Below are positions 2,510-17,708 of a stretch of DNA of 25,756 nt, piece by piece (position 1 is the stretch's first letter; each line of letters opens with the position of its first letter). The stretch comes from Armatimonadota bacterium (GTDB lineage: Bacteria > Vulcanimicrobiota > JACPDS01 > JBDRKI01), in the NCBI GenBank assembly GCA_043814095.1, contig JBDRKI010000044.1, forward strand, positions 1 to 25,756, written 5' to 3'. Under the pieces are notes generated by a model that made no database searches, had not been told where the DNA came from, and saw only the letters and a list, made by a program, of their open reading frames with translations. A program made the position numbers and the translations under genes.

Positions 2510-4207
2510 TTATTTCACAAACTGTTCGGCGTAATACTGCGGGTTTAATCTTTCGCCTGTCGCTTTCTCTATCATGTCATTCCAGTAATATTTCGCGCTC
2601 GGTTTAAATACATTCTCTTTCAGCCATGCTCCCGCTTCGGGCTTGTTCACAAAATCAACTTCTTTCCAATCGGAGACTTTAAGAACATCATTGCCTATTT
2701 TATACATAAGCTGTGAAGCGAACATTTCCCCTAAAAGGTAATTATGATAATACACGGGCGCGATGGTAAAGTGAATTTTTGCCGACCAGTCCGCATTATC
2801 TCTTCCTTCGGGCTGTTTCACAAACTGGTATCTTCCTTTTAAGTCCCACCAGAGATTGTTTAGGTCCTGATCTGGGTTTTCGTACAGCGCTTTCTCAAAA
2901 CGCGCCATTACCTGTGACCATCTTGCGAAAATAAGCATACCGAGTTTCTGGTTTTCCGCAAGAATTTCATTTACTTCGTCTATCCTGTCTTCGGGAAGGA
3001 GGCCCATTTTATTCAGCCAGTATGCGTTTTTTGTGCCTCTCTCCATCATCATTGCTATGGCTTCGGTTGTGAGTATATGGGCAGGGTCTCTTAATGTCCA
3101 GGTGAGCGTCATATCCAGGTTTTCGTCATATACCGCGTGACCGGATTCGTGAAGGAGTGTCCCTGTCCACTGTTCGTTATCTTTCATGTTAAGCAGCATT
3201 CTTACATCCCCTGATTTATCTATATGTGTGCAGTAAGCGTGGGGCTGTTTGCCCGGAGCTTCATAAAGGGAGCTTCTTTTAAGAATGCCGTCTATGGGCA
3301 GGCCTATGCCTTCGTAGAATTTGGTGACTATTTCTATATTGTTTTTGCCCTTGAAGAATTCATCAAGCTCCACAGTCTCACTTATATTCGGGGCGGACTG
3401 GAAATAGGGGTCAGCATAATCCCATACCATGACTTCTTCTTTTTCTATGTGGTGTTTCTTGGCCAGCGCCGTATCCATTTTGTCTTTTAATTTCTTAAAT
3501 GGTTCATCCGTAAGTACCGCCAGCTTATCAAATACTTCGTATAATTCATCCTGGTTTATCTCCCTTGCTTCCAGCATCATGGAATAATAATTATCGTAAC
3601 CTAACTGCTGCGCGGCTTTGTTTCTCAGCTTTACAAGATTGATTAATTTGGGGGCTACTTCATTTGCAACCTGTTTGCTTGCTTCCCACGCTTTCTGGCG
3701 CAGAACCACATCATCTGAAGAAGCAAGAATTTCGTAAATCTCGTTATTTGTCACTTCTTTGCCGTCAATCTTCCCGCGGAAAGTTGAGAATGTTTTTTCG
3801 GTTTCTGTCTCGGCGTCCACTATCTGCTTCAAGAGGTCTTTATCAATCTGTTTAGGCAGGTAGCTGTTGTATATGACATCTATGGATCTTTTGATTATAG
3901 GGTCATTTAACTGCCCGGATTCCTTAAACATCTTTATTTTCTCAAAATCTTCTTTATTTGAATGTATCGTGTCAAGTTCCAAGCTGTATCTGGCGTAAAT
4001 GTCGTAATCTTCGTCTTTACCCGATATGGACGCGTTCCAGTAAGCGATCCCCGCTTCTTTGAATACAGGCGATACTTTTGCTTCATAGTACTGTATGAAT
4101 TCACGGGCTTTGGTATCCATGTCTTCCCCTTCTGTGTTGTTTTGAGCACAAGCCATGCATATGCTCAAAATAAAAATAACCAGGAGCAGTAATGATAATT
4201 TTCTCAT
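2510..4207 (-). CDS. Exported zinc metallopeptidase, M2 (peptidyl-dipeptidase A)/M3-like family
   Basis: HExxH (LLHESGHAVY), downstream TEAIAM Glu ligand, KIHF...PVYYHNYLLGEMFASQL. Signal or lipoprotein-like N-terminus MRKLSLLLLVIFILSICMAC. GAGGAGGGG RBS before the ATG at 4207. Confidence 0.85.
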   Translation of the reverse strand: MRKLSLLLLVIFILSICMACAQNNTEGEDMDTKAREFIQYYEAKVSPVFKEAGIAYWNASISGKDEDYDIYARYSLELDTIHSNKEDFEKIKMFKESGQLNDPIIKRSIDVIYNSYLPKQIDKDLLKQIVDAETETEKTFSTFRGKIDGKEVTNNEIYEILASSDDVVLRQKAWEASKQVANEVAPKLINLVKLRNKAAQQLGYDNYYSMMLEAREINQDELYEVFDKLAVLTDEPFKKLKDKMDTALAKKHHIEKEEVMVWDYADPYFQSAPNISETVELDEFFKGKNNIEIVTKFYEGIGLPIDGILKRSSLYEAPGKQPHAYCTHIDKSGDVRMLLNMKDNEQWTGTLLHESGHAVYDENLDMTLTWTLRDPAHILTTEAIAMMMERGTKNAYWLNKMGLLPEDRIDEVNEILAENQKLGMLIFARWSQVMARFEKALYENPDQDLNNLWWDLKGRYQFVKQPEGRDNADWSAKIHFTIAPVYYHNYLLGEMFASQLMYKIGNDVLKVSDWKEVDFVNKPEAGAWLKENVFKPSAKYYWNDMIEKATGERLNPQYYAEQFVK

Positions 4208-4342
4208 AGAACCCCTCCTCAAATTTAGTTTGTACATTAATAAATTTGTATAGTCCCATAATAATTCCTTTATTTTCGAATTAATAAGCAGGGAAACATA
4301 TATAAAAAAAGAATAAATATAATTAATATACGGGGGTATGTT

Positions 4343-5188
4343 ATGCATTTAAGGAAAAAAGGCTTTACAATGATAGAACTGGTCGTGGTGATAGCCATTC
4401 TCGCTGTTTTTACGGCCATAGTGGTAGTTCAGTATAGAGGATATATAAAAAGGCAGCAGGTAAAAGCCGCCACGGAAGAGATTGTAGCAGAGCTCCGTCT
4501 TGCGCAGTCCGAAGCCGTAAAGTTTGAGCAGTATTATTCAGCTGTTTTTTCTCCAGGTAAGCTTGTTATAAAGAAGGATGTGGATGAGGCAGGCGCAGGC
4601 GGGGAGATAGTTAAAGAGATTTATTTTAATGTCCCGGTTGATATAAGTTTTTCAAACGGTAAAAATATTGTTATTTTTGATCCTTTCGGCAGGATAAATT
4701 TTTTATCCGGAGGGAACAGTTTAAACGGAGGAATATCCTTAAACTTGATTATTCCGCGTCAGCTTGCTGTGCGGAGGTTCATTAAAGCTTCTCCTAAGCT
4801 TATTATCGGCGCGGCGCACGCGAAGGAACCGGCCTTGATCGCACAATTCATTACCCCGAACCCGATCTTGACTCCGACTACAACTACAAATACGCCTACG
4901 TCGCCGGGTTTCATTGATCTGGGTCAACCGGCTATTACCCCAACACCCACCCCGACTCCAATTAGCAATCCAAAGGGACTTCCGGGCACAACTACGCCTA
5001 CGCCAGGTTCCACGCGTCCGCAAATTCCAAAACCGACAGCAACAGGACCCATGCCGACAATTACCCCGCCGGTTCCGCCTGTTCCTCCGGTCCCTATGAC
5101 AGAGACGGTTACAATTACCGTAACTTCAGGCGGTAAAAACGGTTATATTGATATACAGCCGGGTGGCAAGATAACTCACAGGTATTAA
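4343..5188 (+). CDS. Type IV prepilin-like protein, FimT/GspH type, with a Pro/Thr-rich insertion
   Basis: Class III signal KKG|FTMIELVVVIAILAV (G-1, F+1, E+5), ELRLAQSEAVK helix, IVIFDPFGR motif and a terminal TITVT...IDIQPGGKI hairpin. Confidence 0.85.
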   Translation: MHLRKKGFTMIELVVVIAILAVFTAIVVVQYRGYIKRQQVKAATEEIVAELRLAQSEAVKFEQYYSAVFSPGKLVIKKDVDEAGAGGEIVKEIYFNVPVDISFSNGKNIVIFDPFGRINFLSGGNSLNGGISLNLIIPRQLAVRRFIKASPKLIIGAAHAKEPALIAQFITPNPILTPTTTTNTPTSPGFIDLGQPAITPTPTPTPISNPKGLPGTTTPTPGSTRPQIPKPTATGPMPTITPPVPPVPPVPMTETVTITVTSGGKNGYIDIQPGGKITHRY

Positions 5189-5193
5189 GATTT

Positions 5194-5946
5194 ATGAATT
5201 TTAATAAAAAACATAAGGAAAGAAATAACGATAAGGGCATTGCCCTTATGACCACGCTTTTTATATCAATCCTTATATTTCTGCTTGCCGGAGGACTGCT
5301 TCTTTATACCCGGCGCGAATATCAAATAGGCGGCGGGCAGTTAACAAGCATGCAGGCGCAATATGCGGCAGATGCGGGTATTCAATATGCGATAGCAAGT
5401 ATGCAGAAAGTAATGGCGGATAATTCCGATTTTCAGGATATAAAAATCAAATCTTATTACTGGCCGTTAAGCAATACAAGTTTATACGACCCGAACAATT
5501 TGGAAGCATCAAGCACAGTAGCCGTGCCTCCATATAATCAACCTTACTGGTGGCCGCATACTCATACTGCTCTGCCCGGCGATCAAAGTTATATCTGGAA
5601 GTGTAAAAATTTATATAAATTAGCAAATGATCCCGAATGGAGATGGGTTCTGCGGTATAGCGGAGCTCTGCCTTCTTCATATAATTTAAATGTTCCGCTG
5701 AAAGGCATAGGCGCTGCCTCCGCTTCTTTTTTAACAGAATGGAGCTTAGACAATACAATCTCTTCTTTTAATATTGATGACGCGTCGGTTTACTTATGGT
5801 GGTATGATCAGCTTGTTACGATTAAATCCACGGGAGAGGTTGGATATGGATCTAATGTCGCGGGTAAAAGAAGTTATGAGGCGGAGCTTAAAATATTCGC
5901 CAAAAGAAAACCGACAAGGTGGTATTATGGCTCCAAGGGCTATTGA
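5194..5946 (+). CDS. PilX/GspK-like minor pilin
   Basis: DKG|IALMTTLFISILIFLLAGG, lacking E+5 as is typical of PilX/GspK. It also has QAQYAADAGIQYA (PilX N-terminal motif) and a C-terminal VTIKSTG. Confidence 0.8.
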   Translation: MNFNKKHKERNNDKGIALMTTLFISILIFLLAGGLLLYTRREYQIGGGQLTSMQAQYAADAGIQYAIASMQKVMADNSDFQDIKIKSYYWPLSNTSLYDPNNLEASSTVAVPPYNQPYWWPHTHTALPGDQSYIWKCKNLYKLANDPEWRWVLRYSGALPSSYNLNVPLKGIGAASASFLTEWSLDNTISSFNIDDASVYLWWYDQLVTIKSTGEVGYGSNVAGKRSYEAELKIFAKRKPTRWYYGSKGY

Positions 5947-6598
5947 CAAAAAAAACAAAACGGGTTTTTCCCTGCTTGAATTAATTGTGTCTTTGATGAT
6001 TATGGTAACTGTTGTATTCAGCGTGGCAGCTTTATTTGTGTTGAGCACAAAAACCATCAAGCAGTCATCGGATGTTGCAACTTTAACATTTTTAGCTCAG
6101 TTAAAAGCAGAAGAGCTGAAATCCAAACGTTTTTCTTTTTTGCCGGCAGAGACAGATCCCGCGCTTGCAGGAGGAGTTCATGAAGGTAATTTCGGACAGG
6201 AGTTAAATGACGCTGATTTTTCCCTGTATAATTACAAGGCGGAAATAGAAGATTCCATGAAAGACTCGAGCAATAAGACTACTCTGTTGAAAAAGGCGGT
6301 CATTACCGCATACGGTCCCGGAAAGTCCGGTAATGCGGGTACTCCAAGAGTTTCTTTGACCGTCTTTATTCGCTGTTATGACACCAGAAATAATATAGTT
6401 ATAGGGCCTCAGCCCTTTCCGCTTCAGCGCAGGGCCGCGACGGTATATACGGATAAAGTTGAAATAGTGAACGGACGACCGGTTGCCAGAAACTGGTCGG
6501 AAGAAGAAAAAACACTGGCTAAGTTTTACCCGGTGGAGATATTTGATAAAACAAAAAGAAACTTTAATAACTTGTTGACTAATTCACCTCAAATTTAG
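5927..6598 (+). CDS. PilV/GspI-like minor pilin
   Basis: KTG|FSLLELIVSLMIM class III signal and LAQLKAEELK helix. The ATG at 5927 places the cleavage motif near the N-terminus, preferred over 5774. Confidence 0.82.
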   Translation: MAPRAIDKKNKTGFSLLELIVSLMIMVTVVFSVAALFVLSTKTIKQSSDVATLTFLAQLKAEELKSKRFSFLPAETDPALAGGVHEGNFGQELNDADFSLYNYKAEIEDSMKDSSNKTTLLKKAVITAYGPGKSGNAGTPRVSLTVFIRCYDTRNNIVIGPQPFPLQRRAATVYTDKVEIVNGRPVARNWSEEEKTLAKFYPVEIFDKTKRNFNNLLTNSPQI

Positions 6599-6611
6599 GA
6601 GTTTTTTGCTT

Positions 6612-7301
6612 ATGACGGGATATACGCAAAAATACGAAAAAAACAAAGGCATGACCCTAATAGAAGTAATTATTTTTGTGGCTTTATTCTCTGTCTTTAT
6701 AATGTTTACGGCAATGATATTTAAAAACGCTGTTAATGTATACCGGTTCGGCAAAACCAGGACAGATATTAAACACAATGCCGCAATATCCCTTGATTCT
6801 ATATGCAGGGATCTGATGACCGCGCGGTATGTAGAAGTTGAAGGAGGCGCGCCTTATCCGGTATCTTTAAATAAATGTAATCTGGTTATAAATTACAGCA
6901 AAAAACAGGCTGATGATTCCACTAAACTCGGTATCATATACAGAATTGCCGTAGATAAAAATGGAGTAAAACAGTTAGTCAGAAAAAAGATAATAAGCAC
7001 GGTTTTGGCCGATAATCTGAGCATACCGTATGAGCCCGTGGCAGAGTATATAGATGATGTAATTGTTTCAAAAATTACAACCCCGGACCCCTATAATCCG
7101 GGTAAAAATCTTCATGAATCTTACAGAGTTAAAGTTACCGCTAAAATAGAAAAAGGCGCCGTTTTCGGGGTTCCGGAGGGAAAACTTGTTCTTATATCTC
7201 AGATTACCCCGCGTGCTTATACAGAAGATGCTGTTCTTAAGCCGGTTGTTATTTGTGACGGCACAGTTAGCGGCTTTTACGGTTTAAAACCGCAGCCGTA
7301 A
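6612..7301 (+). CDS. PilW/GspJ-like minor pilin
   Basis: NKG|MTLIEVIIFVALF class III signal and AAISLDSICRDLMTA helix. AGGAG RBS at about 6597. Confidence 0.82.
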   Translation: MTGYTQKYEKNKGMTLIEVIIFVALFSVFIMFTAMIFKNAVNVYRFGKTRTDIKHNAAISLDSICRDLMTARYVEVEGGAPYPVSLNKCNLVINYSKKQADDSTKLGIIYRIAVDKNGVKQLVRKKIISTVLADNLSIPYEPVAEYIDDVIVSKITTPDPYNPGKNLHESYRVKVTAKIEKGAVFGVPEGKLVLISQITPRAYTEDAVLKPVVICDGTVSGFYGLKPQP

Positions 7302-7336
7302 AAATATATAATACTGTTTATTATAGGAGATCAATT

Positions 7337-7855
7337 ATGAAAGAAAAAACATTTTACAGTAAATTAGACTTAATAAGAAAAATAAGGAAGAAATATCCCG
7401 CTCCGACAAAGCTTTTCTTTTTCTTGCTTGCCGGAGCTCCGTTTCTTTCGGGGCTGGCTTCTCCCGGCGCGCAATCCGGTTCGGAAGCCATGGCAGATGT
7501 GCCGCTTTATAAATCGGAACCCGTGAAAAACTGTAAAATAGTTTTAACAGATGAGGAAATAAGCATGCCTCAAAATGCGGTATCAGTGAAAGATACGGCA
7601 TTTGTTAATTGCCTGACGAACTGTAACTGCGCGACCATTAACTGTAACTGCAGTCAATATTTTAAGGAGTGTACTCTACTGGCGTGTCAATGCAATGCTA
7701 ACCATCAGTGGGGGGGATACGGGGCCTGCGGCGGCTACCCCTGTGACTGTTACCATAACTGTAACTGTGTTACACAGTGTCAGTGTGATCAAAATACCGG
7801 CAGCGCAATTTTTGAATGCAATTGCGTGACAAACTGCCAGAATCCAAATATGTAG
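7337..7855 (+). CDS. Cys-rich CxC-repeat protein, candidate radical-SAM-modified precursor (RiPP-like)
   Basis: 172 aa with an AGGAG RBS. Basic then hydrophobic N-terminus. Residues 92-167 hold 18 Cys, including seven CxC motifs (CNC x4, CQC x2, CDC). It lies 21 nt upstream of the radical SAM genes. Confidence 0.7.
   Translation: MKEKTFYSKLDLIRKIRKKYPAPTKLFFFLLAGAPFLSGLASPGAQSGSEAMADVPLYKSEPVKNCKIVLTDEEISMPQNAVSVKDTAFVNCLTNCNCATINCNCSQYFKECTLLACQCNANHQWGGYGACGGYPCDCYHNCNCVTQCQCDQNTGSAIFECNCVTNCQNPNM
7619..7768 (+). repeat. Short coding repeats AACTGTAACTG(C/T) encoding NCNC
   Basis: Copies at 7619-7630, 7640-7651 and 7757-7768. Confidence 0.8.
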
Positions 7856-7876
7856 CCCGGAAGGATTTAGTTTTTT

Positions 7877-10800
7877 ATGAAAAAGGCGGTATTTTTTTCC
7901 CCTCCTTTAGATGATTTTTGGACAATACCTTCTTATAATATAAATCTTTTAGCCACAATGGCTTCAAAAACAGCCAATTGTCAGGTTTTTGTTTTTGACG
8001 GTGTCCGTTATTACAATGAAAAATACGGCCCTTTTTCCGTCACGGCGCTTTCACGTGCCGCTAAATTTTTAGATGAAGTAATAAATGAGATTGAAAAGTA
8101 TACCCCCGATATGCTGTTTATGACATCAACCCTGTATTCACTGCCATTTATAAGCGAATTTGCGAAGTCCTATAAAAGACGCAATCCCAAAACAATAATT
8201 ATTTTAGGCGGCATTGCCGCGACGGCGATACCCGGGGAATTGTCAAGAAGAATACCGGCGATAGATCATTTTGTCGCAGGCGAAGCAGAATATCTGATAA
8301 TAGACTTGATCAATAAATTAAGCGGGAAAACGAACAGCTTAACAGAAAAAATAATAACTAACAATCAAGACATAAACCTGGATAAAGTTCCATATGTTGA
8401 CTATGATTATTTAAACAGAACCTTGTCCTGTTTATATATTGAAACAAGCCGCGGATGTCATTATGAATGTAGCTTTTGTTCGGCGAATACCGTTCAAAAA
8501 ACTTACAGAAAAAAAAGCATTTCCAGGGTTATAAACGAAATTATTTTTTATAAATCAAAGTATAGTACTAAAAATTTTACGCTTATTGATAATAATTTTA
8601 CGAATGATAATGTCTGGCTTAGAGAATTCTGTATAGCCTTAATAGAAGAGAAATTAAATATATTTTGGGACTGTTCTTCGCGCATAGATGCTTTAAATAA
8701 AAAAGACCTGTATTTAATGAAAAAGAGCGGCTGTTACAGTATTTTTATCGGACTTGAAAGCATATTTTTAAAAAATTTAAGTTTTTGCCGCAAGAATATG
8801 AAAACCATAGATTTAAACTTAATTAAAGAATGTCAAAAAATGGGTATAAAACCGAAGGTATCTTTGATAACCGGTTTTCCCGGTGATACAGAAGCTCAGA
8901 TCAATAAAATTTTTAATTATGCCAGCCGGCTTGAGAAAGAAGGCGCGGAAGCGCATCTTTCATCTTTAGCCGTTCTGCCGGGTTCCGCATTGTATGAAAA
9001 ATTTAAAAAGGGAAAGATGGAAATATTTTTTTCAGACAAAGGATTAACGGCCAAAAACGAGATTATAAATATGTTTGCAGATAAGTATAAGAAATTCAGC
9101 AATTTTGCACCCTATATGTGGTTTGTGAAAAACAAGAACTTGAAAAACAGCGAACTGGAAAAAATAATAAATAATAATTCAAAAATATTAGCCGGTAAAT
9201 CTAATAAAGAAACAGAAATAAGCGATTTTAGAGCAAATTACAAAATTAACCAGCGCTCTAAAAAGGATTTTTTGGTTATAGTTCCTGCGGCGGCCAAAAT
9301 GGATTACGGAATGACTTATTTTCCGATATATTTTACCACGCGTCTCAGGGCAAAAGGCGTAGAAGCGGTACTGTTTAGCGAGGAATATTTTCCGGGTCAT
9401 GATGAGGATTCGGCAAGGGAAAACGAATGCCTGGATTTTTACGTGAAAACAGTTAACGATTTATGTTCAAAAAATGTTTTGATATATACAATGATATCTA
9501 ATTTTCCTTTCGTAATTGAACTTGTCAAAAAACTTAAAACCGACAGTCCGGGGTTGAAAATAATTTTAATAGGCGAAGTCTATAAATTTTTAAGCGAAAA
9601 AAACCAATATATTCTTAAAAACGCCGATTTTGTAATGGATTCTTTTTCTGAGGAAAGCATTGAGAAACTCGCATATTATCTTAAAGGCGGTCATAAAAAA
9701 ATACAAAAAACAGGAATAAAGCCGTTCTTATTTCGCGGCTTTGCTGATTATGACGCGATACTTAATTATAATAATTTTAAAAAGGGAATTGTGGAGATCA
9801 ATAACGGCTGCGGTCATAATTGCAGGTTTTGTGCCAGAACCGATAAAAAAGTTTATTTAAAAGATCCCGCCTTCGCCGTTGAATATCTTAAGTATATGAA
9901 AAAGCGTTTTTCGCTGGAGGAATTTATTTTTTCCGACAGTTCTATATCGGCAGATTATAACTGGCTGAAAAAATTCTGTTCCCTCCTGATTAAAGAAAAG
10001 CTGGATATACGCTGGAACGCGCTTTCAAGGGCGGATACGGTTGACAATTATTTGCTCGGGTTGATGAAACAGGCGGGATGCTATCTTATAAGTTTTGGCT
10101 TGGAAAGCGCAAATGAGTCTTCGCTTAAATTTTTGGGAAAAGCCAGGAATATAAAAGAATATATGGAAAAAAGTTACAGGAATATAGAACTATCCCTCAA
10201 AAATAATATTTCCGTTCATGCTTCGCTAATTACCGGCCTGCCTGTTGAGACCGAAAAAGAAATTAAAAATACCGCTAAATTAGCCGGAAAATTAAATGAT
10301 CTCGGCGTGGTTGTCAAGCTGGAACTTCTTTCGGTAGCGGCGGGAAGCGCTTTGTGGCATTATTGGAAGTGTGGTAAAATTCAACTGGTTGAGATTAAAA
10401 ATGAGAATTTGAAAAAATGGGTAAGAAGGGTTAACTGTTCCCCTCTTTTTTTCCTTGACAGGTACTCTGATTGTCCGGATATCGCGCCTTTTAGCTGGAG
10501 AATAAAAAATGAATATATTCCGGATGATTATTTAGAAAATTTATTATATGAAGAATTCCGCGCTTTTGCTCCCAATAAAGGGCGCAGTAAATTAATGTAC
10601 AGGAGAACGGAAGCATCCCCGGACGGACGGTTTAAGGTTATGGAAAACCTGGATTTTTTTGTAAAAGAAATACGCGTTAACGCGGCGCCCAGAAGCGTCA
10701 AGGGATCAGCCGGCGAAATGGACTGTTCTTTATTTGTGGACAGAAAAAAAGCGCAGGATTTTAAAATTAATAACGATATTAAATTTACAAATACCGTAAT

Positions 10801-10921
10801 CGTTTTAAAATCAGTGCTGGATCCAGGCAGATATAAAGTTTCGGTTGTTTCAAAATCCGGAGACAATAATTTATTTGTGCGTTTTGTCGATTTTGCCGGC
10901 GAACAGTATATATGCGTTTGA
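7877..10921 (+). CDS. Tandem two-module cobalamin-binding-type (class B-like) radical SAM protein
   Basis: Two CxxxCxxC motifs: ETSRGCHYECSFC (Cys codons 8456-8479) and EINNGCGHNCRFC (9809-9832). Each is preceded by a B12-binding-like domain (IILGGIAAT...DHFVAGEAE; more degenerate in module 2) and followed by SR(I/A)D, GCY.I..GLES and SLITG.P.(D/E)T motifs. Confidence 0.88.
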   Translation: MKKAVFFSPPLDDFWTIPSYNINLLATMASKTANCQVFVFDGVRYYNEKYGPFSVTALSRAAKFLDEVINEIEKYTPDMLFMTSTLYSLPFISEFAKSYKRRNPKTIIILGGIAATAIPGELSRRIPAIDHFVAGEAEYLIIDLINKLSGKTNSLTEKIITNNQDINLDKVPYVDYDYLNRTLSCLYIETSRGCHYECSFCSANTVQKTYRKKSISRVINEIIFYKSKYSTKNFTLIDNNFTNDNVWLREFCIALIEEKLNIFWDCSSRIDALNKKDLYLMKKSGCYSIFIGLESIFLKNLSFCRKNMKTIDLNLIKECQKMGIKPKVSLITGFPGDTEAQINKIFNYASRLEKEGAEAHLSSLAVLPGSALYEKFKKGKMEIFFSDKGLTAKNEIINMFADKYKKFSNFAPYMWFVKNKNLKNSELEKIINNNSKILAGKSNKETEISDFRANYKINQRSKKDFLVIVPAAAKMDYGMTYFPIYFTTRLRAKGVEAVLFSEEYFPGHDEDSARENECLDFYVKTVNDLCSKNVLIYTMISNFPFVIELVKKLKTDSPGLKIILIGEVYKFLSEKNQYILKNADFVMDSFSEESIEKLAYYLKGGHKKIQKTGIKPFLFRGFADYDAILNYNNFKKGIVEINNGCGHNCRFCARTDKKVYLKDPAFAVEYLKYMKKRFSLEEFIFSDSSISADYNWLKKFCSLLIKEKLDIRWNALSRADTVDNYLLGLMKQAGCYLISFGLESANESSLKFLGKARNIKEYMEKSYRNIELSLKNNISVHASLITGLPVETEKEIKNTAKLAGKLNDLGVVVKLELLSVAAGSALWHYWKCGKIQLVEIKNENLKKWVRRVNCSPLFFLDRYSDCPDIAPFSWRIKNEYIPDDYLENLLYEEFRAFAPNKGRSKLMYRRTEASPDGRFKVMENLDFFVKEIRVNAAPRSVKGSAGEMDCSLFVDRKKAQDFKINNDIKFTNTVIVLKSVLDPGRYKVSVVSKSGDNNLFVRFVDFAGEQYICV

Positions 10922-10939
10922 AAGAAAGGTTGATTTAAA

Positions 10940-11992
10940 ATGAAAACAAAAATAATTACAGTTTTATTTATCTTAATGACCGCGTTTTTAATAAGCCCCT
11001 TATGTGCGGACAGAGACTGGGATGTTGCCATGGACGGCGCCATGAAATTTTTAAATGATCCGCCGCCGTGCAGAGTCAGTTTCAGGATTAATATGTATAA
11101 CGACGAGAAAGATGTAATAGATGCGGTAACTTATTTTAATAGAGAAACTTTATACCGTACGGAAGGTAAAATTTACAGCCGCGGCAGGGTTTATAAAATA
11201 AACGAACTGTCCTCAGAGATGAAAAAATTGAATTATTTTTCCATAGAACCGCAGAGAAAATACCCTTCGCTTAGAGTTAACGGCATGGAATCATCCACTA
11301 ATATAACAGATATGGCGCCCTATCCGGTTGCAGGGCTTATGGAAAAATTTCAACCCGCAAATAAGTCTAAGTCTGAAAAAGTAGCCCGTCAGAGCGTAAG
11401 AAAAACCACATATAACGGCATACCCAGTCTTTATGGCGAGTTTGATAGCAGATACGGCAAAGCGTGCGGATGGGTAAATATGGAAAATTCCTGTCCGCTG
11501 GAATTAAGATTTCCGCTCCCCGGAGGTCAGAATTTCGTGACAATCCAGTACTTAGATTATAAAGAAGTTCCGCCGCGCATGGTTCCTTTCAGGTGCAGGG
11601 GATATATAAATAAGACCCTTTGCTGGGAGGCAAGCATCAGCAATATAGAGATGAATGTTGATATGCCGCTGGATATATTTAACCCCAAGCTGTTTAATAA
11701 GAAAAGTTTGAACAAAATGCTGGAAGAGCACGCCGCTCTTGAAAAAATGAGAGCGGAATATATGGCTAAAAAAGGAGTTAAGCCGGAAGCCAGTCTTTCT
11801 CCGGGGCAAACCGGCCAGGTGCAGCCGGTATCAACGCCTATGCCGTCCCCCGGACGGGTTTCGGCACAGAAGGAAGTTCCAGGAGTTAAAAAGACCCATG
11901 GAAATATCTTATGGAAAATTATTTTTATAATTATTTTCATGATTGGAGTTTCGGCAATTGTCTATTATTATTTAAAAAGAAAAAAAGAATGA
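10940..11992 (+). CDS. Exported membrane-anchored protein, possible LolA-like/lipoprotein-sorting fold
   Basis: Signal peptide MKTKIITVLFILMTAFLISPLCA, a YLDYKEV...MVPFR...ISNIEMNVDMPLDIFNP segment typical of LolA-like domains, a Pro-rich linker, and a C-terminal TM helix with a KRKKE tail. Confidence 0.55.
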   Translation: MKTKIITVLFILMTAFLISPLCADRDWDVAMDGAMKFLNDPPPCRVSFRINMYNDEKDVIDAVTYFNRETLYRTEGKIYSRGRVYKINELSSEMKKLNYFSIEPQRKYPSLRVNGMESSTNITDMAPYPVAGLMEKFQPANKSKSEKVARQSVRKTTYNGIPSLYGEFDSRYGKACGWVNMENSCPLELRFPLPGGQNFVTIQYLDYKEVPPRMVPFRCRGYINKTLCWEASISNIEMNVDMPLDIFNPKLFNKKSLNKMLEEHAALEKMRAEYMAKKGVKPEASLSPGQTGQVQPVSTPMPSPGRVSAQKEVPGVKKTHGNILWKIIFIIIFMIGVSAIVYYYLKRKKE

Positions 11993-12008
11993 TATAAAAA
12001 ATAATATT

Positions 12009-13652
12009 ATGAAAATAACAGTAATAGAACCCTATAATATGCCGTATGCACCGCGGCACAGTTCGTCTCTTATTAATGCGTATATTTATTCTTTTTTAAA
12101 GAAGTATGCCTGCGAATTCAAGTTTATTGACTGCGGCGGAATAATAAATATTAATCCCTTCGATGATAATATATCCGAAAACCAGGTGCGTTGGCTTGAA
12201 GAAGTCGTGTTTTTGGCAGAAAAAGAAAAGCCCGATATAGTACTGTTTAATTACAAAACACTTGCCCTGCCGTTCATAAACGAGGTCTCGCTTATGATAA
12301 AGCAAATTCTTCCGGATGCAGTTACGGTGTTGGGCGGTTCGTCTTTAGAGCTGGCGGAAGAATTAATTGATTTGAATTTTGCCGTTGATTATTTTTTAGT
12401 CGGGGATATTGAATTAACCCTGAAAATTTTTTTAGATGACTTTAAAAATAAATCTTTAGAAAATATTATCTACGGCTGCGGGGAAGTTAAGAATTTAGAT
12501 TCGGTTACTCCAAGCTTTGATTTATACGAAAACAGTAATTTGGAGCTTTTACCGTATGATATAAGCCGCGGGTGTGCGTTTAACTGTGAATTTTGCACTA
12601 AATCCGGAAGCAGGTTCCGGAATAAATCCGTGGGGAAAGTAGTCTGCGACCTAAAAAAATTAAAAGAAAAATATAAAGTTAGGCAGATTGGATTTGTTGA
12701 TGAATTTTTCAATTTTGACCGGAAATACCTGTATGAATTTTGTTCGGAAATCAGGAAAAATACCACGGGTGTTGATTTTGCGTGTAATTGGGTCTTAAAT
12801 GAGCCGATCGATTTTGAGCTAATAAAAGAGCTTAAAGCCGCAGGATTGAAGTGCGTGGCTTTCAGTATAGAAAGTTTCCCTGGACGAGAGTTTTCCAGTG
12901 CGGAATTTTATGACAAACAGTATTTATTTGAATATTTAAAAGAAAGCATCATCAAAATAAAGAAATTAAATATAGCGGTTATGGTAAATATTCTGACTAA
13001 TTCATATAATGACACGAGAGAAAGTTTTGAACTGGTGGATAATTTTATAAAAGACGTGACTCCGCACGCCGAACTTTATATAGGACAGGTTTTACTTTTG
13101 CCTCCAAGCCCCCTGTGGCGATTATATAAAAAAGGGGGGATGAAAATAATACCGCGGGCAAAAAACGATTTTCCGGTTCAGAAAGAACACCCGTTCAGCA
13201 AGAAATACAGAGAAACCGTGATTTTTTCGCCGCAATACTGGATGGTAGATAATAAATATATTTACCCAGATATAAAAAGAATATTAAAATATGAAGATTA
13301 TTTATATATTAAGCAAAGGGAACCGGTGCAGAATAGGTATTCATATATTTTCACGGGAGGAGATTTAAAGGCACGGGTAAAATCCGATAAATATATCAGC
13401 GCCTTGAGAGTTAACGCTGCCCAGCGAAAAGCAGTTATTTATAAAGATTTTTATTTAAAGGTTCAGGAGAAAGTGGATGTATTAATTGACGATGTAAAAA
13501 TGGGCGAATTTTATTTGGATAAAGGGTTGTCATTTGATATTTATGATATCAAACTGGAGCACATGATAGAAGCCGGTAGGCATACAATAGAATTTGCGGC
13601 AAAACAGGATAATGTTTTTGTTGATAAAATGGAATTAATAACGAAAGATTAA
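12009..13652 (+). CDS. Cobalamin-binding-type radical SAM protein
   Basis: VTVLGGSS...DYFLVGDIE N-terminal domain, ISRGCAFNCEFC (Cys codons 12573-12596), GFVDEFFN, FSIES. Confidence 0.85.
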   Translation: MKITVIEPYNMPYAPRHSSSLINAYIYSFLKKYACEFKFIDCGGIININPFDDNISENQVRWLEEVVFLAEKEKPDIVLFNYKTLALPFINEVSLMIKQILPDAVTVLGGSSLELAEELIDLNFAVDYFLVGDIELTLKIFLDDFKNKSLENIIYGCGEVKNLDSVTPSFDLYENSNLELLPYDISRGCAFNCEFCTKSGSRFRNKSVGKVVCDLKKLKEKYKVRQIGFVDEFFNFDRKYLYEFCSEIRKNTTGVDFACNWVLNEPIDFELIKELKAAGLKCVAFSIESFPGREFSSAEFYDKQYLFEYLKESIIKIKKLNIAVMVNILTNSYNDTRESFELVDNFIKDVTPHAELYIGQVLLLPPSPLWRLYKKGGMKIIPRAKNDFPVQKEHPFSKKYRETVIFSPQYWMVDNKYIYPDIKRILKYEDYLYIKQREPVQNRYSYIFTGGDLKARVKSDKYISALRVNAAQRKAVIYKDFYLKVQEKVDVLIDDVKMGEFYLDKGLSFDIYDIKLEHMIEAGRHTIEFAAKQDNVFVDKMELITKD

Positions 13653-13665
13653 AAAGGGTATAGGT

Positions 13666-14940
13666 ATGTATATAAATGAGGTTTTAGAGCTGTCCGCGCC
13701 CGTATTCTGTTTCTTGGAAATAACAAATCTTTGCAACAATAAATGCCCGGGCTGCGGGAATGTTTTTGAACACGGGATTCAAAAACAGCTTTCTCTGGCG
13801 CAATGGGAAAAGGCGATAAACGAGATAAGCGAACAGGTAAGCTCTGTCAGGGTAACGGGCGGTGAAGCTTCTTTAAGAGAAGATTTTTGGGAGATTTTAG
13901 ACCTGCTGGAAAATAAAAATTTATGTTTTTCGGTGTTCAGTAATGGCAGATGGAAAAGTCCTGAAAAATTTCTGGATAAAATAAAAAGCTATAAATATTT
14001 CAAAGGATTTTTAATTTCTCTGCACGGACACAATGCTGAATCTCACGATAAATGGAGCGGCGTGGAGGGAAGCTTTAATGAAACAACCGGCAATTTAAAA
14101 TTGGCCGCCGGTAAAAACATAATATTCAGCACGAACGCGGTTATTTCGCCGTATAATTATAATTTTATTAAGGAAATAACGGATCTGGCTTTTTCTTTGG
14201 GCGCGCGCGGCGCCGTATTTAACCGTTTTTATCAAAGCGGTGAAGAAAGTTTAAAAGCGGTGGTTTCGGAAAAAGAGCTTTTATCCGCGATTTCTTCCAT
14301 AGAAAAATTAAAAAGAAGTAATTATAAAAACTTTATAAATTACGGAAACTGCATCCCTCACTGTTTTTGTCATTCTGCTTCAAACGGATGCACAACGGGA
14401 ACCACCTTCTGCACTATTGATCCTTTTGGCAATATGAGACCCTGTAATCACGCAGAGTATATTGCCGGCAACATATTAGAAAAAGGTTTTTTAAATATAT
14501 GGAAATCCGAAAAAATGAGAATCTGGCGCGGTTATATTCCCGGGGAATGCAAAAAATGCGCCGCTTTCTTAAACTGTCACGGCGGATGCCGTGCTTTAGG
14601 CATGAAATACGGACAAGATCCGCTGATGAAAACCCCGATAGTGAAAACCGAAACGATTGAAGACATTCCGGAAGTTAAAATAAATAAACATACAAAAGTC
14701 CGGTTAAACACAACCAAAATAAGACAGGAAAAATTCGGGTATTTATTAATGAATAATGACAGTTTTTCGGCAGTAAAAAAAGAAGCATATGATTTTTTAG
14801 CGAATCTTAACCGTTTTTCCAGTATTGAAGAAATTTATAAAGAAAAAGGCGAAGAAGCGGTTGCTTTGTTATATAAATTATATAACAGGGGAATAATTGC
14901 GTTTGAAAATTCTCAAGAAAAGACAGAAGTTCCTGCTTAG
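13666..14940 (+). CDS. Radical SAM/SPASM domain protein with C-terminal PqqD/RRE-like domain; candidate peptide maturase
   Basis: LEITNLCNNKCPGC, TGGEA, FSNG, ISLHG. SPASM cysteines GCTTG..FCTIDPFGNMRPC...GNI...CKKC...CHGGCRA. C-terminal IRQEKFGYLLM... segment. Confidence 0.88.
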   Translation: MYINEVLELSAPVFCFLEITNLCNNKCPGCGNVFEHGIQKQLSLAQWEKAINEISEQVSSVRVTGGEASLREDFWEILDLLENKNLCFSVFSNGRWKSPEKFLDKIKSYKYFKGFLISLHGHNAESHDKWSGVEGSFNETTGNLKLAAGKNIIFSTNAVISPYNYNFIKEITDLAFSLGARGAVFNRFYQSGEESLKAVVSEKELLSAISSIEKLKRSNYKNFINYGNCIPHCFCHSASNGCTTGTTFCTIDPFGNMRPCNHAEYIAGNILEKGFLNIWKSEKMRIWRGYIPGECKKCAAFLNCHGGCRALGMKYGQDPLMKTPIVKTETIEDIPEVKINKHTKVRLNTTKIRQEKFGYLLMNNDSFSAVKKEAYDFLANLNRFSSIEEIYKEKGEEAVALLYKLYNRGIIAFENSQEKTEVPA

Positions 14941-16724
14941 TTTATATGATTTTTCTTTATTTTTTCGTATAAAGGCATAAACTCTTCTTTTTCGGGGTCC
15001 GTTGCTTTCGGGATGAAAGTTTTGAACTGCTCATATGCTCCGGCAGTATCTCCCAGCGAATAGTAGATTTTTCCCAGCATAAGGTTAAGCCATGTGTTTT
15101 GCGGATTTTTCATCAGGGCTTTATCCAGATACTGTTTTGACTTTGTATAATCATTCAGGTTTAAATAGGCAAAAGCTATCCCGGTATTGTAATCATAAGA
15201 TGGATTATATCTCATAGCCGTATTTGACCAAAAAATAACATTATTCCAGTTTTTTTGCATCATTGCCAGCAGTATGAGGTTGTCAAAAATATTTTTGTAA
15301 TGCGTGGAATATTTTAATGCTTCCGTAAGGTTTTTTTTCGCCGCTGAGGTTTGTTTGGTTTGTATATAAACATAGCCCAGGCTGTTGTGGATATATTCGT
15401 CTTTTAATCCTGAATTTACCGCTTTTTTAAAATAATCTTCGGCGATTGAATAATTATCATAATAAGCGTTTATTAATCCCATAGCATATAAATAATAAGG
15501 GTTGTCGGGATATTTTTGTGTAAGAAGATTAAACTCAGCCGCTGTTTTCTGTAGCTGGTTTTGACTTTCCATGCAGTTTATGTACATTTTTAATGCGTAA
15601 GAATTATTTTCTTTTGAAAATGCCTGCTTAAACAGATCGGCAGCCTTATTGATATTTTTTTTTGAATATTCGGCCTGGCCGTTGTTGATAAGTCGCTGGT
15701 TTGCAGATATAGAATATTTATGGCTCCCGGGCGCGTCTTTAATTCGGGGCGGATTTAATTTCGGCGAAGCAGATTTTGTTTCTTTTATTTTTTTTATTGT
15801 ATAACTTAAGTTTACATCTATTTTGCTCTTATCTAATTCGGGGTTGCTCAAGTAAAAGGAAAAGGGCACCCTGTTATTCTCCCAGAGAGTTATGTAATTA
15901 TCCCGTATTTCCCCGAAACAGCAGTACCGTGATTCCGGATTAAATCTTCCCAGCGTGGGATCTATGTAAAGCCATCCGTATTCGGGCACATAAGCTTGTG
16001 CCCAGGAATGTGTTTTTGTGAATTTCCCGTCTTTATCGTTATAAAATATTCCCGCTTCGAATTTTGCGGGTATATTTATGCTCCTGCACAAGGCGATTAA
16101 GAGAAGGACTGAATCGGCGCACTGGGCCTTACGGGTATTTAATACTTCCAGCGCGCTTGAACATTTTTTATCTTCTGCGTAAAGAAGTTTTGTTCTCGTA
16201 AAATCGTATAATTTTATAAGCTTGTAATAATCATTGCTCTCATTTTTTGTTATATCAAGAGCTGTTTTCTTGATATTTTCCGAGTTGGTTTCTATGTCCG
16301 GCTCTTCTTTTAAATGCAAGCCGTCTATAGCGGTCTTATTCTGCCGTAGTTCCGGTTTGTTTTCAATATGAAATATTTTAGCATTAAAATTTATTCTTAT
16401 GTTTGCTTCCTTCCCGGGATTAAATTCGTTTATTTTAATAAGATATGCCTTGTTATTATTATGGGGGATGGAAATTGTTTGGTATTTATGATTTATAGAA
16501 AAGTTATAAATTTTCTGGCGGGGGTATATATTCTTTATCTCGGGGACAATACAGAAAAGTTCGGAAGGCGCGTCCGATCCGTTTTTAAAATTAATATTAT
16601 ATGAAATATGGTAAATTGAACAAGTTTTTAAACCTGATCCATTAAGATTATTGCGGCTAAAAATAGAAAAAACGGAACAAAAAACAGCTAAAATTATAAA
16701 TGCCGCTATAAGTATTTTTTTCAT
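14937..16724 (-). CDS. Exported transglutaminase-like cysteine protease domain plus TPR repeats
   Basis: Signal peptide MKKILIAAFIILAVFCSVFS, triad motifs AQCADSVLLLIALCRSINIPA / HSWAQAYVP / GWLYIDPT, and C-terminal TPR-like repeats (YYLYAMGLINA, IHNSLGYVY, LNLMLGKIYYSLGD). Confidence 0.85.
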   Translation of the reverse strand: MKKILIAAFIILAVFCSVFSIFSRNNLNGSGLKTCSIYHISYNINFKNGSDAPSELFCIVPEIKNIYPRQKIYNFSINHKYQTISIPHNNNKAYLIKINEFNPGKEANIRINFNAKIFHIENKPELRQNKTAIDGLHLKEEPDIETNSENIKKTALDITKNESNDYYKLIKLYDFTRTKLLYAEDKKCSSALEVLNTRKAQCADSVLLLIALCRSINIPAKFEAGIFYNDKDGKFTKTHSWAQAYVPEYGWLYIDPTLGRFNPESRYCCFGEIRDNYITLWENNRVPFSFYLSNPELDKSKIDVNLSYTIKKIKETKSASPKLNPPRIKDAPGSHKYSISANQRLINNGQAEYSKKNINKAADLFKQAFSKENNSYALKMYINCMESQNQLQKTAAEFNLLTQKYPDNPYYLYAMGLINAYYDNYSIAEDYFKKAVNSGLKDEYIHNSLGYVYIQTKQTSAAKKNLTEALKYSTHYKNIFDNLILLAMMQKNWNNVIFWSNTAMRYNPSYDYNTGIAFAYLNLNDYTKSKQYLDKALMKNPQNTWLNLMLGKIYYSLGDTAGAYEQFKTFIPKATDPEKEEFMPLYEKIKKNHIN

Positions 16725-16859
16725 AAATAATAACTTTAATTTTACTTTTTAAAATCCTTCAAAAATTCTTAATAGCAGGGATTTATGCTTATTTCTAAAA
16801 GAATATACAGCAAAATAATATTGTATTATAACGATAAGTTAAATGCGGACGGTTGGATT

Positions 16860-17708
16860 ATGGATTGTCTTAATATTGAAAAATACAAATATCATAAGAA
16901 CTTATTCGGCATAAAAGAAACTCCCTATATTAAACTTTTTGAAGAATTTATTTGCAGTTCAAACGATTTTTTTATAGAATGTTCGTTAAAAATAAATAAA
17001 AACAAGGTGCATCCCTTGCGCATAAATGTTTATTATTGGAACAAAAACGATGTAAAGGAAAATTTTGATAAAATATTGCGATTTTTTGAAAAAATGGGGA
17101 AACTCCCGGATGTTTCCATAAATTCCGGGTTTTACGATAAAATTATTGATAAGGATATGAATTTTAATAAAGTGCTGGGCGTTGCCGTCGGGATAGATTT
17201 TAGACAGGATAGTGCTTTATCGAGAGTAAAATTATGGACAGGCTTTAAGGATTACCCGGAAAAAGAACAACAGGTTTTATCGCTTCACGGATTTAATAAA
17301 GACATAAAAAATATTTTGACTTTGTTTGATTCGGATATGTTTTCTTTCGGCTTTGACTTTTATTTTAACGGCAAAAGCAGAATAAAAATTTATCCGCATA
17401 TACAGGAAAGTCTTAAAAGCATGGCTCTCCGCGAGCGCCTGCGCGCGTATTTTCATGAAAGCGTATATGATTTATTGGATAATTCCTGCAGGATTCATCT
17501 GTCTTTTGACGGCGCCGACTATAAAAAGATAATTCATTTTTTCCCACATCCTTATTCTTATACTGATTTTATAAGAAAGCTGAATTTTAAACAACTGGAA
17601 AAACTGCACGAACAAATTTATAAAAAATACAATAAATACAGAATAATAGCGGTGGCGGAAGATGAAATTATCAGCGGAAAAATCACAAATGCAGGTTTAT
17701 ATTATTAA
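16860..17708 (+). CDS. LynF/TruF/PatF-family (cyanobactin-type ABBA) peptide prenyltransferase
   Basis: HKNLFGI...FEEF, IECSLKI...HPLRIN, FFEKM...MNFNKV..VAVGIDFR...SRVKLW...DYPEK, FGFDFYFNGKSRIKIYP and a terminal ...LYY follow the motif order I recall for this family. The start is either 16785 or 16860. Confidence 0.8.
   Translation: MDCLNIEKYKYHKNLFGIKETPYIKLFEEFICSSNDFFIECSLKINKNKVHPLRINVYYWNKNDVKENFDKILRFFEKMGKLPDVSINSGFYDKIIDKDMNFNKVLGVAVGIDFRQDSALSRVKLWTGFKDYPEKEQQVLSLHGFNKDIKNILTLFDSDMFSFGFDFYFNGKSRIKIYPHIQESLKSMALRERLRAYFHESVYDLLDNSCRIHLSFDGADYKKIIHFFPHPYSYTDFIRKLNFKQLEKLHEQIYKKYNKYRIIAVAEDEIISGKITNAGLYY

Follow-up and report, generated by a model that had tools for sequence, protein, structure and literature searches.

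The stretch of DNA analysed here, hereafter the window, is an entire contig (JBDRKI010000044.1, C44; 25,756 bases) of the 2.5-Mb genome of an Armatimonadota bacterium, which is assembled into 129 contigs and is 99% complete. Between positions 4343 and 17708 it carries genes for four prepilin-like proteins, a small Cys-rich protein, two proteins of the cobalamin (B12)-binding class of the radical S-adenosylmethionine (SAM) superfamily, a LolA-like protein, a radical-SAM/SPASM enzyme, a transglutaminase-TPR protein and a PatF-type peptide prenyltransferase (Table 1). This gene content had been proposed in a first-pass annotation made from the letters of the DNA, and the open reading frames (ORFs) together with their Pfam and NCBIfam matches establish it as real. 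The region from 7337 to 17708 is interpreted below as a probable radical-SAM maturation cluster of the kind that acts on peptides made by the ribosome and modified after translation (RiPPs), one whose precursor family is new and whose partners form an uncommon combination.

Nine genes on the plus strand follow one another closely from 4343 to 14940, the spacing between them being, in order, 5 nt, an overlap, and 7, 35, 21, 18, 16 and 13 nt, and a scan of the window placed no plus-strand terminator-like site inside the intergenic gaps of this stretch; the tight, terminator-free arrangement claimed at first pass is thus upheld. The four prepilin-like ORFs occupy 4343-5188, 5194-5946, 5774/5927-6598 and 6606-7301, the third probably starting at the ATG at 5927 rather than at 5774. 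The transglutaminase-TPR gene is encoded on the minus strand and converges on the SPASM gene, the two overlapping by 4 nt, and the prenyltransferase gene diverges from it across a spacer of 60 nt. Because of these orientations, both genes stand outside the nine-gene transcription unit.

Table 1. Features of the window between 4343 and 17708, with their strand and the basis of each assignment
Feature	Position	Strand	Basis
Four prepilin-like genes	4343..7301	+	N_methyl/TIGR02532 matches; genome-typical composition
Promoter-like site TTTAAA-18-TATAAT	7283..7312	+	Consensus scan, 10/12 positions
Cys-rich precursor protein, 172 aa	7337..7855	+	4 homologues, no Pfam/NCBIfam family
Fused double class-B radical-SAM protein, 1014 aa	7877..10921	+	Pfam, NCBIfam
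Exported anchored LolA-superfamily-like protein, 350 aa	10940..11992	+	Structure matches, hydrophobic termini
Third class-B radical-SAM protein, 547 aa	12009..13652	+	Pfam Radical_SAM, sub-cut-off B12-binding
Radical-SAM/SPASM protein, 424 aa	13666..14940	+	Pfam Radical_SAM + SPASM; TIGR04085
Transglutaminase-core + TPR protein, 595 aa, exported or anchored	14937..16724	-	Pfam
LynF/TruF/PatF-family (ABBA) peptide prenyltransferase, 307 aa	16785..17708	+	TIGR04445, PF19156

The Cys-rich protein contains, by sequence count, 19 Cys residues and seven CxC motifs in its 172 residues. Eighteen of the Cys residues, along with 14 Asn, fall within a core of 84 residues (89-172; 7601-7852) that is composed mainly of C-N-C units. 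Residues 1-45 (7337-7471) comprise a basic N-region followed by a hydrophobic segment resembling a signal peptide, and residues 51-75 (7487-7561) contain a conserved leader-like motif, PLYK...KNCKIxLTDE, which spans residues 55-73. Four homologues, conserved over the full length and sharing 34-61% identity, were identified among approximately 5.77 billion proteins. Hydrophobicity analysis places a hydrophobic segment at residues 26-40, behind the basic N-region, in all five members of the family, and their cores are nearly uncharged, measuring 68-84 residues with 14-19 Cys and 10-17 Asn. The 33 CxC motifs of the five proteins are CNC in 25 cases, the others being CQC (3), CHC (3) and CDC (2), and the alignment shows the outermost core motifs, VNCLTNCNC at the beginning and CNCVTNCQNPN at the end, to be nearly invariant. 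Among 41 related genomes the protein is present in one, the window's own; a scan of the species genomes with the family alignment and a scan of viral contigs gave no match, and comparison with Pfam and NCBIfam assigned the protein to no family. Its AlphaFold2 model is foldless, with a predicted local distance difference test (pLDDT) value of 34.6. A structural identity for the protein was also sought in the Atlas and rejected, the matches obtained (template modelling, TM, scores up to 0.28) being meaningless.

The DNA could be read for a single relative of the locus, L002, a contig of 1,583 bases recovered from the metagenome scan; the contigs of the other relatives measure 26,133, 11,433, 6,422, 4,414, 3,439, 3,164 and 2,620 bases. 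L002 carries three genes on one strand, namely the TPR tail of a transglutaminase-TPR homologue (57% identical), the Cys-rich gene and, 10 nt further on, a B12-radical-SAM ORF, the first 49 residues of which are identical to the public protein P0012. P0012 (564 residues) is the best match to residues 1-450 of the fused double radical-SAM protein of the window (34% identity), and P0009 (581 residues) is the best match to its residues 451-1014 (41% identity). Since the two halves thus occur as separate proteins in the relatives, the fusion is particular to this genome. Collection records place P0005, P0012 and P0015 on the contig of 26,133 bases and P0004 and P0009 on that of 11,433 bases, and at least two of the four Cys-rich homologues lie on contigs that also encode the double radical-SAM protein in split form, these assignments being a fingerprint rather than a reading of the contigs. 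Homologues of the Cys-rich protein therefore travel with B12-radical-SAM and transglutaminase-TPR genes, which makes it likely that the protein is the substrate of the radical-SAM set. The first-pass annotation had asked whether pilin genes accompany the homologues as well, and in L002 a pilin gene does not stand in front of the Cys-rich gene. In L002 the transglutaminase-TPR gene precedes the Cys-rich gene in the same orientation, whereas in the window it meets the SPASM gene head-on at 14937-14940, with no room for a terminator between them, so that a rearrangement separates the two loci. P0159, a transglutaminase fragment of 336 residues on the contig of 3,439 bases, ends in the same FIKKGTDAFFYGG stretch that opens L002 (2-60) and is unlike the window protein at that place; judged from this shared stretch, the two are probably neighbouring contigs parted by an assembly break, in which case about 2.4 kb would exist upstream of the transglutaminase gene of that organism.

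The SPASM protein matches PF04055 (56.4 bits), PF13186 (36.0 bits) and TIGR04085 (45.8 bits), and its translation carries CNNKCPGC, a CxxxCxxC radical-SAM motif, and CKKCAAFLNCHGGC, which follows the SPASM pattern CX2CX5CX3C. Its relatives in the PDB include SkfB (E 7e-14), PqqE (2e-11) and 5wgg (7e-6). The C-terminal domain, approximately residues 330-424 (14653-14937), is winged-helix-like, with a weak match to 2xvc (E 0.047). Modelled as a complex with precursor residues 50-112, the protein gave a median score of 0.70 (0.64, 0.75 and 0.70 in the individual runs), against 0.00 for the best of three controls; the mark applied had been calibrated on solved complexes, 58 of 80 of which attain it, and on mismatched pairs, 2 of 110 of which do so. 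The runs share at least 50% of their contacts, and the pLDDT of the partner is at least 46, that is, under 50, so that its fold is uncertain. The modelled interface joins residues 334-342, 357-358, 368-377 and 387-405 of the SPASM protein to residues 51-60 and 63-75 of the precursor, the latter stretch including the invariant K64, K67, L70, T71 and D72. The model supports a peptide-recognition role for the C-terminal domain resembling that of a RiPP recognition element (RRE). An RRE on this enzyme had been claimed at first pass; the predicted contact with residues 51-75 agrees with the claim, which Pfam does not support. Along with the co-travelling homologous genes, the modelled placement of the SPASM domain on the leader-like motif also speaks for the earlier suggestion that the Cys-rich protein is a radical-SAM substrate.

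The fused protein of 1014 residues shows in Pfam two Radical_SAM stretches and a B12-binding domain, with a CxxxCxxC motif in each half and a beta-rich domain in the C-terminal part of about 120 residues. In the first half the PF02310 match (49.3 bits) is followed by the PF04055 core. The second half has no direct PF02310 match; for its orthologue P0009, the alignment to the first half covers residues 42-431 (28.5% identity, E 7e-43). The protein of 547 residues matches Radical_SAM (44.2 bits) and, below the cut-off of 32.1, the B12-binding PF02310 (28.6 bits); it aligns to residues 640-1001 of the fused protein and has a C-terminal domain of the same type as the fused second half. The best NCBIfam scores are far below the cut-offs (ApyD, 174.9 against 750, for the fused protein; MftC, 103.8 against 265), and against TIGR03975, 'RiPP maturation radical SAM C-methyltransferase', the fused protein scores 142.2 bits with a cut-off of 281.85. 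As no equivalog cut-off of NCBIfam is reached, the radical-SAM enzymes are unassigned members of their superfamily. Matches to the fused protein at E up to 1e-20 are present in 56 of 401 genomes of the phylum, the best match outside the window's own genome being 36% identical over one domain, and no close homologue was found in the 400 other genomes. This count, and probably also those given below for the prenyltransferase and for the second prepilin-like gene, includes an unpublished genome (G329), on which no claim rests.

Four giant public proteins (P0010, P0011, P0013 and P0016) of 1,800-2,700 residues each contain four to five separate B12-radical-SAM domain matches; multi-domain class-B radical-SAM 'assembly lines' therefore exist, of which the fusion in the window is a small example. 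In the window's own genome (G000), three and two more B12-radical-SAM genes are situated among glycosyltransferase/flippase-like genes at C126:26000-41000 and C72:11000-14000, respectively, with SPASM-type genes too on C126, and class-B radical-SAM enzymes apparently serve glycan or envelope biosynthesis there. Paralogous clusters were considered as relatives of the island and rejected, the other B12-radical-SAM loci lying among glycosyltransferases and a SPASM gene in a haem operon; none is similar.

In the protein of 350 residues the N-terminus is hydrophobic and the C-terminus forms a transmembrane helix, and a LolA-like half-barrel is predicted at approximately residues 16-256. Its Atlas model (predicted TM score, pTM, 0.63) resembles the TP_0789-like, LolA and MucB_RseB families (TM 0.45-0.53), and with its AlphaFold2 model, which is of low confidence (pLDDT 45.4), the top eight Foldseek matches in the PDB all belong to the LolA superfamily (E up to 1.1e-4, TM 0.18-0.39). 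The protein has no match in Pfam and a single homologue, P0007 (38% identity), which is encoded on the contig of 6,422 bases. The earlier description of it as LolA-like may accordingly hold at the level of the fold only and lacks a family match. The transglutaminase-TPR protein matches Transglut_core (PF01841, 69.4 bits) and TPR, begins with a hydrophobic segment and has two homologues besides itself. The motifs QCAD, HSW and DPT are common to the window protein, P0159 and P0160, which are all three of the sequences with the domain, and in our own reading of these motifs they would supply the catalytic Cys, His and Asp of the transglutaminase core; the protein is a candidate leader protease or cross-linker. 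Hydrophobic N-terminal segments in the precursor, the 350-residue protein and the transglutaminase-TPR protein alike are cues to a location outside the cytoplasm.

The protein of 307 residues belongs, over its full length, to the LynF/TruF/PatF family (TIGR04445, 146.6 bits with a cut-off of 140; PF19156, 121.6 bits with a cut-off of 28.8). It has 15 relatives in the PDB, including SmiF (E 4e-35), LimF (4e-26), PagF (5e-19) and the inactive PatF (3e-7), and is, by these E-values, far closer to the active solved members than to PatF. Inactive PatF has His125, Gly127 and Met136 at the positions of the Asp, Arg and Lys that bind the prenyl diphosphate (PMC3668578). The window protein carries, in the motif GIDFRQDSALSRVK, Asp138, Arg140 and Lys149 with the same +2/+11 spacing, the equivalence being drawn from the spacing and the match offset only. 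Among the 401 sampled genomes of the phylum TIGR04445 occurs in one, the window's own, and a scan of the prenyltransferase against the species genomes gave no match. The literature on cyanobactin-type prenyltransferases outside cyanobacteria yielded nothing bearing on the locus. Lanthipeptide prenylation, considered as a parallel, was set aside as irrelevant to the locus (PMC12715784).

Composition divides the region. The GC content is 0.393 for the genome, 0.422 for the pilin genes, 0.439 for the Cys-rich gene, 0.357 for 7877-17708 and 0.427 for the downstream genes. The value for 7877-17708 falls within the lowest 4.6% of the 5-kb windows of the genome and that for 14937-17708 (0.334) within the lowest 0.2%, the prenyltransferase gene having the minimum of the whole window (0.312). 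The tetranucleotide distance from the genome mean reached by 7337-17708 is matched by 0.7% of random windows of equal size; the corresponding figure is 0.5% for the radical-SAM segment and 1.5% for the segment of the transglutaminase and prenyltransferase genes, as against 25% for the pilin genes and 57% for either flank. Between the radical-SAM segment and the transglutaminase and prenyltransferase segment the deviations are correlated and point the same way (r 0.77), a value reached by none of 400 random windows, and low GC accounts for part of this correlation; between the radical-SAM segment and the pilin genes r is -0.06. From these compositional data we read 7337-17708 as a single block that was probably imported, the prenyltransferase gene included and the pilin genes excluded.

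The balance of the evidence tips, by a modest degree, towards the interpretation of 7337-17708 as one rare, horizontally acquired maturation island for a ribosomal, exported Cys-rich protein, in which the logic of RiPP biosynthesis would be applied to a small protein. In the pathway we infer, the 172-residue precursor would be made with a Sec-type signal-like N-terminus, the leader-like motif of residues 51-75 and the C-N-C core of 84 residues. While still in the cytoplasm, the leader motif would be bound by the SPASM enzyme through its C-terminal winged-helix domain, as modelled, and the enzyme would modify the core, most likely by thioether links from Cys to carbon, for which the example of ranthipeptides suggests the carbons of the Asn, Thr or Gln beside Cys as partners. 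Methyl groups or other radical modifications may be added by the three class-B radical-SAM domains, and the PatF-family enzyme may attach a prenyl group. The product would then leave through its signal-like N-terminus, as for bufferins, and outside the cytoplasm the anchored LolA-fold protein could handle it while the transglutaminase-TPR protein trims the leader or introduces cross-links. The island would have landed beside a native minor-pilin cassette. Bufferins are RiPP precursors with a Sec signal that are modified in the cytoplasm and then exported (PMC11626156), and the DAG-RiPPs are a precedent for lipidated membrane-bound RiPPs (PMC13056109).

The island shares features with several known systems. 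As in the sactipeptide and ranthipeptide systems (CteB, PapB, SkfB, AlbA), a radical-SAM/SPASM enzyme with the full CX2CX5CX3C motif adjoins a Cys-rich precursor, and a putative recognition domain is modelled on a leader-like motif. In the characterised sactipeptide and ranthipeptide enzymes the recognition domain is N-terminal, whereas the recognition-like domain in the window is C-terminal. The window differs further in its precursor, with 172 residues, a signal-peptide-like N-terminus and 18 Cys in the core, in the addition of three B12-radical-SAM domains, a prenyltransferase, a LolA-fold protein and a transglutaminase-TPR protein, and in reaching no equivalog cut-off of NCBIfam. The likeness to bufferins (BufA/BufB/BufC; PMC11626156) lies in a long Cys-rich precursor with an N-terminal Sec-like signal, here deduced from hydrophobicity, and in the proposed order of cytoplasmic modification followed by export to the periplasm along the general secretory route; by this analogy a metal-binding role for the precursor is plausible. 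Bufferin precursors, in contrast, are modified by MNIO (DUF692) enzymes with DUF2063 partners, the window has radical-SAM enzymes in their place, and there is no sequence similarity; Pfam found no MNIO/DUF692 gene among the window ORFs, and the locus is not counted among the bufferins. The best NCBIfam match of the fused protein, ApyD, links it to the cobalamin-dependent radical-SAM C-methyltransferases of RiPP pathways, the ApyD of aminopyruvatide methylating a C-beta of a ribosomal peptide (PMC10635010). Unlike ApyD, the window has three class-B domains, two of them fused, and a beta-rich C-terminal domain in place of a detectable RRE. The prenyltransferase is like the cyanobactin F-type enzymes (LynF, TruF, PagF, LimF) in passing the NCBIfam cut-off and in aligning end to end with the solved members, and unlike them in its setting, a radical-SAM island in a phylum of which the 400 other sampled genomes lack the family.

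If the proposed interpretation is correct, the locus would represent a new class of radical-SAM-modified small protein, with Cys-Asn-Cys repeats as an unusual target, a recognition domain at the C-terminus of a SPASM enzyme, a single substrate for three cobalamin-dependent radical-SAM domains, a cyanobactin-type prenyltransferase in a radical-SAM setting and export along the general secretory route, which so far is known for the MNIO-modified bufferins. The idea of a 'signal-peptide RiPP' would widen to radical-SAM chemistry, and enzymologists would gain a substrate along with the four radical-SAM catalysts, as yet uncharacterised, that act on it. With five members in 5.8 billion proteins, the family is very small and would therefore be missed by family-based genome mining.

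Several points weigh against this interpretation. No modification has been observed, and the enzyme families, all equivalog scores being far under the cut-offs, leave the chemistry unspecified. The signal peptide of the precursor is judged by hydrophobicity alone. The PqqD/RRE profile (PF05402) does not match the SPASM protein even at E up to 10. RRE-leader complexes have already been solved, and the high score of the complex model may only mirror a likeness to them. Owing to the GC content of the Cys-rich gene (0.439), the left border of the island can be placed no more finely than within 7301-7877. The exclusion of the pilin genes is drawn from one junction, that in L002, as far as its 1,583 bases extend, and the 35-nt gap between the pilin and Cys-rich genes, on the same strand and devoid of a terminator, fits co-transcription. 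The link of the prenyltransferase to the rest of the island consists of adjacency, composition and rarity in one genome. Macrocyclic or bulky peptides would be, as the bufferin paper points out, poor substrates of Sec (PMC11626156).

The last but one of these points leads to an alternative that is possible, if rather unlikely, in which the precursor, the radical-SAM enzymes, the LolA-fold protein and the transglutaminase-TPR protein form the core of the system and the prenyltransferase is an unrelated passenger with its substrate elsewhere. In keeping with it, the prenyltransferase gene is transcribed separately, divergent from the transglutaminase gene, the scans made with it reached no relative, and Pfam revealed neither subtilisin-type proteases of the PatA/PatG kind nor a cyanobactin-type (PatE-type) precursor among the 20 window ORFs. 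However, the gene bears the compositional signature of the island in the extreme form described above, encodes the sole member of its family in the sampled genomes of the phylum and lies beside the transglutaminase-TPR gene, the membership of which L002 supports, and the window holds no other candidate substrate gene. The first-pass inclusion of a PatF-type enzyme is supported by shared composition and by its single occurrence among the sampled genomes of the phylum, though not as part of the nine-gene unit, with respect to which the gene is separately oriented.

The next alternative concerns the prepilin-like genes. The first gene scores 29.9 bits against N_methyl (cut-off 21.2), the fourth 22.5 bits, and the third 18.6 bits by hmmscan and 22.2 bits in the genome search; these three bear the prepilin cleavage/methylation motif (N_methyl/TIGR02532). 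The second resembles GspK at the N-terminus, and there only weakly (21.4 bits with a cut-off of 130), and lacks Glu5. Four consecutive prepilin-like genes, one of them GspK-like and without Glu5, recall the minor-pilin and pseudopilin sets (GspH-I-J-K; FimU-PilV-PilW-PilX). Unlike in those sets, the family-specific scores (GspH, ComGD, GspK, Verru_Chthon cassette) are far under the cut-offs and cover the N-terminal helix only, and no gene for an assembly ATPase, a platform protein, a prepilin peptidase or a major pilin is present on the contig; such assembly genes are found on other contigs of the genome, among them five full-length genes for GspE/PilB-type ATPases and the only gene for a prepilin peptidase. 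The protein of the second gene matches 17 of the 401 genomes, its own included, over the N-terminal 60-95 residues only, and no orthologous pilin cassette was found in the 400 others. The GspH/ComGD-like prepilin at 4343-5188 ends in a Pro/Thr-rich tail of about 90 residues (TPTPTP..., PPVPPVPPVP), which is unusual for a minor pseudopilin.

A single functional unit of minor pilins and modification cluster, in essence the model of the first-pass annotation, appears improbable; in it the Cys-rich protein, once modified, would either sit on the tip of a pilus (type IV) or pseudopilus or be dedicated cargo of a type II secretion system (T2SS). The genes share a strand across the short gap described above, at which (7301-7337) no terminator-like site and no significant stable hairpin or RNA structure was detected (z -1.24); Glu5 is present in three of the pilins and absent from the GspK-like one, a pattern that resembles a priming or tip complex; and the Cys-rich protein is predicted to exit the cytoplasm, as pilus-tip proteins and T2SS cargo do. 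PilY1-type tip proteins occupy the gene position after minor-pilin sets, which is that of the Cys-rich gene here, and by our own estimate, from some 20 pilin clusters in about 2,300 genes, the probability of a chance adjacency is approximately 1-2%. Against this, the composition breaks exactly at the junction of the pilin genes with the island, and a transglutaminase-TPR gene rather than a pilin gene precedes the Cys-rich gene in L002. In both loci a promoter-like site lies before the Cys-rich gene, which is a weak argument: the site TTTAAA-18-TATAAT of the window ends 25 nt 5' of the start codon, and the region contains 60 such sites against 45.4 expected, while the copy in L002 is preceded by TTGGCG-17-TACAAT. 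Furthermore, the prepilin motif G-F-x-x-x-E is absent from all five members of the Cys-rich family, which also give no N_methyl match, the contig is devoid of assembly genes, and across the genome 33 matches to the prepilin motif are spread over 16 contigs. The fusion of a pilin operon with the cluster, and display on, or export through, a pilus, are not supported, given the compositional break, the arrangement in L002, the missing prepilin motif in the Cys-rich protein and the abundance of such motifs elsewhere.

The segment 4343-7301 is probably a separate, native minor-pilin cassette adjoining the island. Nothing besides position ties it to the island, with which it may be co-transcribed without belonging to the conserved system, and a functional link between the two is decidedly unlikely. 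Two DNA sequencing runs contained short, low-depth pieces identical to the window, none of them informative across 7301/7337, and such data are mute on transcripts and on other arrangements. A literature search, with supplements outside its scope, found no paper joining radical SAM, pseudopilin and RiPP. More improbable still is a specific version in which a type IV pilus or pseudopilus would carry the radical-SAM-modified, prenylated C-N-C protein as cargo or as a tip module that is not itself a pilin. Its gene would follow the set of four minor pilins, in the position of PilY1-type proteins, the transglutaminase-like protein would fasten the product in place and the LolA-fold protein would shield its lipid; if true, an uncultured bacterium of groundwater would have a pilus tip that is chemically cross-linked and possibly binds metal or minerals.

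The least probable of the alternatives holds that the Cys-rich protein is a metallothionein-like or iron-sulfur-type metal binder rather than a substrate and that the enzymes act on a lipid or small molecule: CxC repeats are classic metal ligands and the AlphaFold2 model is foldless without metal, LolA-fold proteins bind lipids, the best NCBIfam match of the 547-residue protein is a B12-radical-SAM family of lipid biosynthesis and HpnJ scores high for the fused protein (all far below the cut-offs), and the other B12-radical-SAM genes of the genome are in glycan rather than peptide clusters, but it is opposed by the modelling of the SPASM C-terminal domain onto a conserved motif other than the Cys repeats with controls at 0.00, by the PatF family being known only as peptide prenyltransferases (from the family name and the PDB relatives), by the predominance of Asn at the x of CxC, which metal binding alone does not explain, and by the absence from the window, according to Pfam, of isoprenoid or lipid biosynthesis genes.

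The surroundings of the proposed maturation island were also examined. No Rfam families or tRNAs were found in the window. A synteny search of the flanks in four related genomes located the upstream peptidase gene in one and the OPT transporter gene in three, on unrelated contigs, and recovered no insertion site. On the right, the gene of the OPT oligopeptide transporter begins 77 nt after the prenyltransferase gene and has a paralogue with 49% identity on contig C118. It is directly followed by two neighbouring paralogues (19817-20701 and 20901-21791), each with a tandem double universal-stress-protein domain. On the left, the longest ORF of an M2/M3-like peptidase (2510-4348, minus strand) overlaps the start of the first pilin gene head to head by 6 nt. 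A homologue of the peptidase in genome G003 aligns from residue 41 onward, and the real start is probably near 4207, at a Met ahead of a lipoprotein-like signal (MRKLSLLLL...), which would leave about 135 nt as divergent promoter space before 4343.

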